NCBI GenBank assembly: GCA_020724805.1
Contig: DYGI01000001.1
Location: 8,934 to 72,933 of the forward strand
Length of the DNA stretch: 64,000 nt
Reading direction: 5' to 3'
Origin: Candidatus Microgenomatus sp.
Lineage (GTDB): Bacteria; Patescibacteriota; Minisyncoccia; UBA6257; GWB1-50-10
Shown: one piece after another, positions 39,220 to 39,484 of the stretch
Position numbering within the stretch: the stretch's first letter is position 1
How the letters are laid out: each line of letters opens with the position of its first letter
Made by a program: the position numbers and the translations under genes
Notes under the pieces: model-generated
Databases searched by the model: none
Seen by the model: only the letters and a program-made list of their open reading frames with translations
Told to the model about the DNA's origin: nothing

Positions 39220-39412
39220 GTAGCCCCGAGGGGAATCTCCTTCGACTCAATTATGCGCCGCCGCGCATAATTGGTCTAGGCACCGCCTCGTGTCCCTCAG
39301 TGCTCCTCGGGACAAACTCCGGCGTTCGATTTCCCACGCGAGCCAAGCAGTTGGCTCGCTTCGGAATAAAAATCAAAACAGCGAGCATAAAGCCCGCCGT
39401 TTTGATTTTCCG
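39220..39412 (-). repeat. tRNA-Glu flanking insert with direct repeat of tRNA 3' end (divergent)
   Basis: 18-nt gtagccccgaggggaatc at 39220-39237 repeats the tRNA-Glu 3' end (39413-39430). The 175-bp insert has three long hairpins (39248-39273 and others). Confidence 0.4.
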
Positions 39413-39484
39413 TAGCCCCGAGGGGAATCGAACCCCTGTTTACGCCGTGAAAGGGCGCTGTCCTAACCACTAGACGACGGGGCC
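39413..39484 (-). tRNA. tRNA-Glu (anticodon UUC), no encoded CCA
   Basis: Acceptor GGCCCCG/CGGGGCU, anticodon loop CUUUCAC, T-loop TTCGATT. Confidence 0.8.

Follow-up and report, generated by a model that had tools for sequence, protein, structure and literature searches.

A tRNA-end-mimic insert of family B behind a Patescibacteria tRNA-Glu gene

Behind the tRNA-Glu(UUC) gene of the window, i.e. the whole 64,000-nt stretch of DNA analysed here, 192 nt (39220-39411) form an indel bounded by a direct repeat of the tRNA 3′ end; they fold into a covarying structure whose arms match the adjacent tRNA, and they belong to a family, here family B, the copies of which have been retargeted and turned over between genomes. 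The insert is a bona fide member of this family, which is widespread in Patescibacteria and apparently new and undescribed. On balance, and with confidence only a little above even, 39220-39411 is read as a single copy of a protein-less insertion element with tRNA 3′ ends as its targets (a ‘tRNA-end-mimic’), and this reading is favoured over that of a purely host-encoded trailer module, which we hold to be unlikely.

Patescibacteria genomes measure 0.5-1 Mb and have little space for junk. If mobile, the elements would be a new kind of protein-less element, with a target specificity that resides in arms re-made for each tRNA; to our knowledge, such programmable logic has previously been found only in protein-encoding elements. 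If they are host RNAs, tRNA biology in a major bacterial radiation would have a very common layer that has gone unrecognised. They also account for assembly breaks at tRNA genes in Patescibacteria genomes, offer structural and biochemical work a new RNA fold with strong covariation, and are ready markers of strain-level insertion polymorphism.

The tRNA-Glu locus, its repeat and an empty site

The tRNA-Glu gene (table 1) serves the insertion as target or host. Its last 18 nt in the tRNA sense, GATTCCCCTCGGGGCTAC, recur 174 nt downstream, and GTAGCCCCGAGGGGAATC matches exactly at 39220-39237 and at 39412-39429, 192 nt from start to start; the repeat described in the initial annotation is, therefore, confirmed, as is the existence of a spacer, although its length is 174 nt and not 175 bp. 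The repeated segment comprises G57, A58, T-loop positions 59-60, the 3′ strand of the T-stem, the 3′ strand of the acceptor stem, the discriminator A and one C. The distal copy, or tail, has two roles, in that it forms the 3′ strand of both the closing helix P1 and the acceptor-like helix and also marks the distal border of the indel. The insert contains no ORF, and no integrase was found nearby among the neighbouring genes, which include those for a tRNA synthetase, a cupredoxin protein and GreA, besides others; an exact-protein look-up of the ORF product that flanks the tail returned no record. The insert is predicted to fold at -100.3 kcal/mol, as compared with -65.6 +/- 4.3 kcal/mol in shuffled sequences (z = -8.0).

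Table 1. Position of the Glu insert, its parts and related features in the window.
Feature	Coordinates	Strand	Remarks
tRNA-Glu(UUC)	39412-39484	minus	ARAGORN; Rfam tRNA 65.8 bits; complete, no encoded CCA
Proximal repeat copy	39412-39429	minus	true tRNA-Glu 3′ end, 18 nt
Spacer hairpin just 3′ of tRNA-Glu	39369-39409	minus	18-nt arms 39369-39386 / 39392-39409, 89% complementary, 5-nt loop
Anti-acceptor segment UUCCGA	39361-39366	minus	read from sequence
P0 hairpin	39338-39359	minus	GCGAGCCAA, loop CUGC, UUGGCUCGC
Anti-T arm GGGAAAUC, 5′ strand of closing helix P1	39328-39335	minus	complementary to GAUUCCC of tail and tRNA
Conserved family-B core	39238-39327	minus	match of covariance model CM R1 at 39228-39337, 89.8 bits, E = 4.6e-20
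Tail, distal copy of tRNA-Glu 3′ end	39220-39237	minus	distal border of indel
Flanking ORF, small membrane-like protein	38716-39219	minus	no Pfam hit; gene caller start 39183
Family-B sister element behind tRNA-Lys(CUU)	3846-4008	plus	CM R1 match 3890-3998, 88.9 bits

Six of the window's 18 tRNAs are followed by such a 3′-end repeat (Pro-CGG, Lys-CUU, Arg-GCG, Glu-UUC, Ser-GCU and Leu-UAA), so that what had been counted as a fourth insert is indeed an insert, but one of six, with the Lys insert as its sister copy. A single layout is common to all six: in the tRNA sense, a hairpin follows the tRNA; next comes a stretch that complements the T-loop and T-stem 3′ strand of that tRNA, then the structured core and finally a copy of the tRNA 3′ end. 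The cores, instead, fall into distinct groups: those behind Pro, Ser and Arg constitute family A, those behind Glu and Lys align together as family B, and that behind Leu belongs to neither. The tail of the Lys element, GACCCCCAGGGGGCGGAC(AA), lies at 3989-4008. The family-A motif AGGGGTCGGGRAAA..CCCGYGYCGGA.. is found only at 861, 38466 and 39599, besides one chance site, and is absent from the Glu insert; a multiple alignment found no core similarity between the Glu insert and family A. The earlier observation of the same architecture as family A with different hairpins thus holds, the layout being equal and the core, as recognized by CM R1, that of a separate family; the earlier proposal of a distant relative or an independent element obeying the same target logic is likewise supported by a core distinct from that of family A.

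A search of metagenomes for the predicted empty junction led to a 1.46-kb contig of a relative (L132), in which the tRNA-Ser with its family-A insert is 83% identical to that of the window, the ORF 69% and the tRNA-Arg 96%. Here AACAGGGGTTCGATTCCCCTCGGGGCTAC directly abuts ATGCCAGA, the latter belonging to the ORF that in the window is found past the distal repeat, and 24 of 24 bases at the junction between the tRNA-Glu 3′ end and the ORF are identical. The junction without insert identifies the 192 nt as an indel bounded by the repeat; with two sequences compared, it could instead mean that L132 lost the insert by an exact deletion between the direct repeats. A comparison anchored on GreA (five homologues) revealed neither empty nor filled sites; its contigs start 160-300 nt upstream of GreA, with the closest (L006) being cut within tRNA-Ser and two others (L008 and L009) having no tRNA-Ser there.

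Anatomy and fold of family B

The order of parts in family B is, from the 5′ side, an optional terminator-like hairpin, the anti-acceptor segment, P0 (loop CUGC), GU, the anti-T arm and GAAC, followed by P2a (CGNC/GN'CG) with its GGA/GA loop, P2b (loop AGCAG), GU, P4 (GCCY/RGGM) around P3 (loop GACG), GA and the tail. The core consensus, CGAACGNCGGAGC..GCGAGN'CGGUGCCYAG..CGRGGGMGA with P2a, P2b, P3 and P4, is found in the Glu insert, which lies on the same strand as its tRNA and 3′ of it, has the tRNA 3′ end as its tail and carries a complementary 5′ arm. In particular, its core reads GAAC, P2a (CGCC/GGCG), the internal loop GGA/GA, the P2b hairpin (UGUCCC..GGGACA) and GU, and then P4 (GCCU/AGGA), the P3 hairpin (39248-39273) and, last, AGUCGAAGGAGA. 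The sizes of the GGA/GA internal loop do not fit a K-turn on inspection, and this identity was rejected.

The three long hairpins seen at the outset all have a place in this scheme: the 11-bp one is the perfect stem of P3 (39248-39258 / 39263-39273), the 9-bp one (GCGAGCCAA / TTGGCTCGC, 39351-39359 / 39338-39346) is that of P0, and the third is the 18-nt stem of the spacer hairpin (table 1). The last accounts for 41 of the 192 nt of the insert and is followed, on the tRNA-sense strand, by UUUUUAUU; it looks like a terminator, and a simple promoter/terminator consensus scan did not flag it. The spacer hairpin is optional in family B, in other members of which just 29-39 nt separate the tRNA from the core.

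The fold is well supported by comparative evidence. In an alignment of 96 sequences, RNAalifold found compensatory changes at 22 of 28 pairs, and such changes occur at all eight predicted pairs of P0 (96-sequence alignment as well). When a 40-pair structure was considered, 81.7% of the cells were paired as compared with 64.6% in shuffles (none of 500 as high) and 38-44% with slid partners, with a covariation score of 0.470 versus 0.169 in shuffles. Single positions covary among C-G, G-C, A-U and U-A, the N/N' pair being C-G 23 times, G-C 14 times and A-U seven times. The conserved core is a three-way junction of approximately 95 nt (P2, P3/P4) with strong covariation. In well-paired/well-aligned columns G-U combinations outnumber A-C ones by 78 to 31 (p = 8e-6), and over all pairs by 60 to 45, which is not significant; the excess in the well-aligned columns indicates that the tRNA-sense strand is the one that folds, and it is also compatible with a folded single-stranded DNA of the same strand.

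The arms, on the other hand, belong to the tRNA. The internal GCGTTCGATTTCCC at 39322-39335 that had been noticed in the insert is present, but its reading as a family-A-like tail (‘gcgttcgatttccc’) is not maintained, because its sequence is that of the tRNA-Glu T-loop and T-stem 3′ strand in reverse complement (18 nt, 83%). The 5′ arm is genuinely reverse-complementary to the 3′ region of the tRNA, including the T-loop bases and the gene-encoded trailer; an origin of the arm as a copy of the tRNA 5′ strands was ruled out, the arm being the reverse complement of T-loop bases 54-60. Throughout the family, the duplex of the anti-T arm with its own partner has a mean energy of -8.5 kcal/mol versus -5.4 kcal/mol with swapped partners (p = 1e-16), and that of the 5′ region with its own tail reaches -10.1 versus -7.4 kcal/mol (p = 1e-6). 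The anti-acceptor UUCCGA of the Glu insert is complementary to UCGGGG in the 3′ strand of the acceptor stem when two G-U pairs are allowed. A retro-copy or primer-binding-site origin from mature tRNA was also considered and rejected: CCA is no commoner after the tail than after the gene (4 versus 4 discordant cases), and the 5′ arm complements the gene-encoded trailer (e.g. CAA) rather than CCA.

Distribution, location and turnover

The pattern CGAACNNCGGAG-N20-35-GAGNCGGTGCC, derived from the alignment of the Glu and Lys inserts, was scanned in a genome collection and gave at least 120 loci; among the 120 listed, 109 are Patescibacteria MAG contigs, and the other 11 are high-GC chance matches scoring at most 17.8 bits. 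The hosts listed comprise Saccharibacteria, Paceibacteria, Kaiser-, Taylor-, Uhr-, Woese-, Nomura- and Jorgensenbacteria. CM R1, built from 45 copies outside the window, matched in the window the Glu and the Lys inserts and no others; at E <= 10 it gave no match to the family-A inserts (Pro, Arg and Ser) or to that behind Leu. Its E-values are rough owing to a shortened calibration, which leaves the bit scores unaffected. On the loci listed, it recognized at least 122 copies in 100 loci, with scores of up to 116 bits.

A same-strand tRNA lies within 250 nt upstream in 79 of the 125 pattern matches listed, with at least 16 isotypes represented; other copies listed stand behind tmRNA genes or behind tRNAs interrupted by group I introns, and some lie at the end of a contig, form tandem arrays or lack a cognate tRNA. 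As a rule, the family-B repeat runs from T-loop position 57-59 to the discriminator plus C, measures 12-33 nt and may reach up to 33 nt into the trailer. Tails are decayed in about half of the copies listed, with cores being retained. In a census of the kind that the initial annotation had suggested, of tRNA genes with a distal repeat of their 3′ end, a downstream copy of at least 12 nt was found for 63 of 192 tRNAs in the listed Patescibacteria loci and the window, versus three in the 5′-end control, so that about one-third of the tRNA genes sampled precede such an element, a fraction biased upward by the choice of loci for having a family-B copy.

These data also bear on the possibility that the repeat arose by chance, or by tandem duplication of the tRNA 3′ end on the spot, and that the hairpins are fortuitous. 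Slippage can make short repeats near tRNA genes; however, the sequence between the copies duplicates nothing local, the census exceeds its control, the folding energy stands at z = -8 and CM R1 scores 89.8 bits. Repeats confined to these loci and explained by local tandem duplication had been named at the outset as the finding that would undo the proposal; instead, the family occurs in more than 100 Patescibacteria contigs, and a relative has an empty site. This explanation is, in our view, virtually untenable.

Searches of known RNAs and of the literature place family B apart. With Rfam 15, only tRNA models reached the gathering score in the window, and a search at E <= 10 over 38300-39800 gave nothing credible on the insert; the RNA upstream of some family-B copies had no Rfam match either. 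A full-text search of the literature found no description of tRNA-end-mimic elements. The nearest published topic, that of anticodon-loop group I introns in tRNAs of Patescibacteria, is a different matter (PMC13011429), and a survey of 224 motifs contains nothing relevant to such elements (PMC5737381).

It was also asked whether the element could be a small intron of the T-loop, with the distal copy being the real tRNA 3′ end and the stretch from the proximal copy to the end of the core being excised by the element itself or by a protein. The succession of a complementary segment, a core and a ‘3′ exon’ does recall the group I layout of internal guide, core and 3′ exon. However, in every copy that has a cognate tRNA this proximal tRNA is complete, and TTCGA-to-tail joins in the 31 copies without an annotated upstream tRNA revealed no interrupted tRNA gene, the sole positive (L022) being a tRNA-Ser that ARAGORN finds already complete, upstream of masked sequence, and that is probably a tandem copy. 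Furthermore, the element has no Rfam group I match, and a core of approximately 95 nt is far below the size of known self-splicing introns, all of which makes an intron extremely unlikely.

A somewhat better case, yet still a very unlikely one, can be made for the scar of a site-specific integration, i.e. the attL/attR of a mostly deleted tyrosine-integrase island or phage, or a CIME-type cis-mobilisable remnant. The direct repeat covers the part of a tRNA or tmRNA gene from T-loop to 3′ end, tmRNA genes are targeted too and, at one locus (L119), two copies flank 1.2 kb with two small ORFs. A repeat of this extent in tRNA and tmRNA genes is reportedly the classic signature of integrase targets. 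On the other hand, the 174-nt body is a conserved, covarying multi-helix fold, which binding sites in duplex DNA would not yield, and the same core is found at no fewer than 16 different tRNA sequences, beyond what any single integrase core site allows. The Glu insert has the end repeat of an integrative element, but its neighbouring genes include no integrase, and viral contigs provide no parent attP: the family-B core has 0 matches in 2.9 million of them, by which its identity with a phage attP was rejected.

Comparison between genomes reveals that cores and arms have different histories. In a syntenic cluster of tRNA-Gly-GCC and tRNA-Arg-UCG, one genome (L040) lacks an element behind Gly and has family B, with arms matching Arg, behind Arg; in three others (L079, L052 and L081), the Gly gene precedes a family-B copy whose arms match Gly, and the Arg site holds a different core in L079 and L052 and is empty in L081. 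The cores behind a tRNA-Glu (L050) and a tRNA-Ala (L106) are 4.3% apart and share P0, with unrelated tails; the closest relative of the window Glu core among the copies listed sits behind a tRNA-Gln, and in family A the Pro and Ser inserts have almost the same core. Among the cases listed, the isotype is shared with the nearest neighbour in 14 of 68, chance giving 5.5. That this exceeds chance is due to orthologous retention; that it is so low indicates that cores move among tRNAs faster than they diverge, with the arms being renewed each time. The arms being tRNA-specific and the core common, the former must be made from the target, or be quickly corrected against it, at each insertion.

Orthologous copies do persist, with 71-79% identity of their flanks and compensatory changes (L067/L098 and L052/L079), and this leaves room for a host function. 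Indeed, retained orthologues fit selection on a useful host RNA as well as, or better than, selfish spread. The element might be a cis-acting RNA module that sits in the tRNA 3′ trailer and benefits the host, being inherited vertically and active, for example, in processing, termination or quality control, its minihelix-like stem recruiting RNase P, RNase Z or the CCA-adding enzyme; new copies would then arise by tRNA-gene duplication and concerted evolution instead of transposition. Such a module is considered plausible, if unlikely. Sequence and structure are deeply conserved across Patescibacteria classes, orthologous tRNA-Leu and tRNA-Gly copies are retained with compensatory changes, two tRNA-Ser paralogues of one locus (L025) carry near-identical cores with arms that follow each tRNA, C follows the discriminator in 34 of 36 tails and in 35 of 36 real tRNA genes, and the sense strand is the folding strand. 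What speaks against the module is that the element is found on only about one-third of tRNAs, in sets that differ between related genomes; that the tRNA-Glu site is empty in L132; that several unrelated core families occupy the same type of site, even at the same orthologous tRNA; that tandem arrays and copies without cognate tRNA exist; and that near-identical cores stand behind unrelated tRNAs and tails are often decayed.

Candidate mechanism and comparison with known systems

Family-B elements occupy the 3′ trailer of Patescibacteria tRNA and tmRNA genes and present, on the tRNA-sense strand, the three-way-junction core of approximately 95 nt clamped by a terminal helix. The 3′ strand of this helix repeats the final 18-25 nt of the tRNA upstream, and its 5′ strand is the complement of the same sequence, usually split by P0. 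If the preferred reading of a protein-less insertion element is followed, insertion would take place at the segment between T-loop and 3′ end of the tRNA, leaving the gene intact and the segment on both sides of the insert. The folded species may be an RNA produced by read-through from the tRNA, although, given the strong terminator-like hairpin between tRNA and element, co-transcription may be inefficient. The closing helix could act as a guide to, or as a mimic of, the acceptor/T-arm minihelix of the tRNA, and spread would probably rely on some host activity. The decay of tails in about half of the copies listed, with their cores kept, counts against this reading too. Neither a transposase, an integrase or a reverse transcriptase linked to the element nor an excised or circular form was seen, so that the mechanism of movement is wholly one that we infer; guide-directed insertion, a repair-type duplication from T-loop to 3′ end and correction of the inverted arm by template switching are conceivable routes by which insertion or the renewal of the arms might occur.

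A bolder version, to which we assign a small probability, is that of an RNA machine, namely a guide-bearing mobile RNA or single-stranded DNA that would locate tRNA gene ends through base pairing and remake its arms for each target, or a trans-acting ribozyme that replaces tRNA 3′ ends. As a ribozyme, the element would combine an anti-T-loop/T-stem guide, a putative catalytic core and a fresh copy of tRNA nucleotides 59-76, i.e. the layout of a trans-splicing repair ribozyme; damaged acceptor ends would then be restored in minimal-genome organisms.

Family B lacks one defining feature of each of the known kinds that were testable here. Like tyrosine-integrase islands, prophages and CIME, the protein-less element takes as target the T-loop-to-3′-end segment of tRNA and tmRNA genes, leaves the gene intact and has a partial 3′ copy at the far end; unlike them, it measures 150-190 nt, carries no integrase, serves many tRNA sequences with one core, contains inverted as well as direct copies of the target, covaries in the manner of RNA and has no matches in viral contigs. 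With MITEs, REP/BIME, Correia and Rickettsia palindromic elements, it shares being short, non-coding, multi-copy, hairpin-rich and variably present between relatives. However, its terminal inverted repeats are those of the local tRNA 3′ end rather than a fixed element sequence, its interior is a conserved three-way junction and no simple palindrome, and its sites are restricted to tRNA and tmRNA 3′ ends; moreover, the flanking repeat is of variable length (12-33 nt), whereas the target-site duplication of MITEs is fixed at 2-10 bp. A group I intron is a poor match as well, tRNA-Glu being complete without the insert and Intron_gpI giving no match.

A scaffold with flanks complementary or identical to the target is also found in IS110 bridge RNA, IS200/IS605 omega-RNA, the EBS of group II introns and engineered trans-splicing group I ribozymes. 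The order of guide, core and target-identical 3′ segment resembles that of a trans-splicing ribozyme or of an omega-RNA with a 3′ guide, a likeness of layout only; in contrast to these guide-carrying RNAs, family B has no attached gene for a recombinase, TnpB or reverse transcriptase and no Rfam match. In CTX-phi attP(+) and integron attC, as in family B, inverted arms anneal into a duplex that imitates the target, and arm structure outweighs sequence; those systems, however, have one fixed target (dif and attI, respectively) and a known recombinase (XerCD and IntI), while the target of family B varies with the tRNA. Finally, unlike tRNA-like RNAs (YrlA, mascRNA, viral tRNA-like structures and minihelices), family B has a 95-nt domain in place of the T-loop, matches each copy to the adjacent tRNA and, instead of copying the tRNA 5′ strands, has a 5′ strand that is genuinely complementary to its 3′ strand, even at the T-loop bases; what it has in common with them is a closing helix of acceptor on T-stem and an end formed by the discriminator and C.

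Arm logic across different cores

The three family-A inserts of the window and the family-B insert behind tRNA-Glu have a common arm logic, i.e. a copy and a complement of the upstream tRNA 3′ end are placed around the core. The cores of the Pro and Ser family-A inserts are almost identical, whereas the arms of each match its own tRNA, and compensatory changes are found in both hairpins of the copy at tRNA-Arg-GCG. Family A is also present in the relative's contig L132 and, beyond the window, after tRNA-Ser in a Jorgensenbacteria MAG (L036). Besides families A and B, at least three more core types share the arm logic, being laid out as a T-arm complement ending in TCGAA, the core and, then, the tRNA-end copy; therefore, the tRNA-end-copying inserts form a superfamily rather than two families.

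A sixth insert of the window repeats 18 nt of the tRNA-Leu 3′ end (window 45308-45325). Its core resembles neither family A nor family B, with no match there to the covariance model of the family-B core (trained without window sequences), and no obvious T-arm-complementary arm is found in it.

Location of the inserts and associated features
Feature	Sequence	Position	Strand	Remark
Family-A insert, tRNA-Pro	window	775-921	-	
Family-A insert, tRNA-Arg-GCG	window	38347-38542	-	
Family-A insert, tRNA-Ser-GCU	window	39493-39687	-	
Sixth insert, after tRNA-Leu-UAA	window	45202-45325	+	106 nt + 18-nt repeat
Upstream conserved region	L034	~4540-4990		
Upstream conserved region	L119	~2010-2800	minus	
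Upstream conserved region, other loci	L023, L049, L055, L088			
Family-B cluster	L047	5895-7661		four copies in 1.8 kb
Family-B pair	L106	5124-5407		two copies, 180 nt apart
Further core types	L055 + L126; L040 + L068; L079 + L052; L042, L083, L099, L128			L079 + L052 after tRNA-Arg-UCG
Split tRNA-Glu, 5′ half	L132	612-646		
Split tRNA-Glu, 3′ part	L132	~800-829		
Second, complete tRNA-Glu(UUC)	L132	695-770		inside ~150 nt separating the split halves

Surroundings and arrays of family-B copies

Certain family-B copies are immediately preceded by a conserved non-coding region of ~300-800 nt, which terminates in ..GTTCGRRC(N10-14)ACACC, matches no Rfam family and yields no tRNA or tmRNA gene call. 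The arms of the copies that follow it resemble tRNA-Glu, -Ala or -Ser ends, and no such tRNA matching those arms is found near them. The arm sequence occurs additionally within the L119 region, both as a direct and as an inverted copy; in the same contig (394-1975, minus strand), two almost identical family-B copies, the second preceded by just 8 nt of tRNA-like end (GGTCCACC), bracket 1.2 kb with two small ORFs. Local clusters or tandem arrays occur in L047, L106, L094 and L066, the second copy of the L106 pair being without a tail (i.e. the distal copy of the tRNA 3′ end).

Four contigs (L003, L004, L005 and L006), from independent assemblies of the window's organism and its closest relative, stop within or right beside tRNA-Ser and its family-A insert, and family-A repeats at this tRNA appear to break short-read assemblies. 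The L076 contig is a perfect palindrome centred on a family-B copy, with identical matches on both strands; the palindrome probably arose during assembly, as an artefact of the inverted arms of the element.

The tRNA genes and their ends

Among tRNA genes without encoded CCA in the window and loci L010-L129 (n=36), the discriminator is followed by C in 35 and by ‘CA’, the commonest case, in 20; element tails show the same statistics.

In L132 (612-829), the window-type tRNA-Glu is interrupted within the anticodon loop, and inverted repeats of 13-15 nt (CACCCCGCACCTTTT and AAAAGGTGCGGGG) lie on either side of the segment with the inner tRNA-Glu(UUC). Since the inner gene is complete and lies between the two parts of the interrupted one, one tRNA gene is nested within another.

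Directly after the tRNA-Arg/element cluster of two related genomes (L040, from ~5160 onward; L081, from ~3790 onward) is a gene that, judging from its sequence (..LVGGCVRD..), looks like that of a CCA-adding enzyme.
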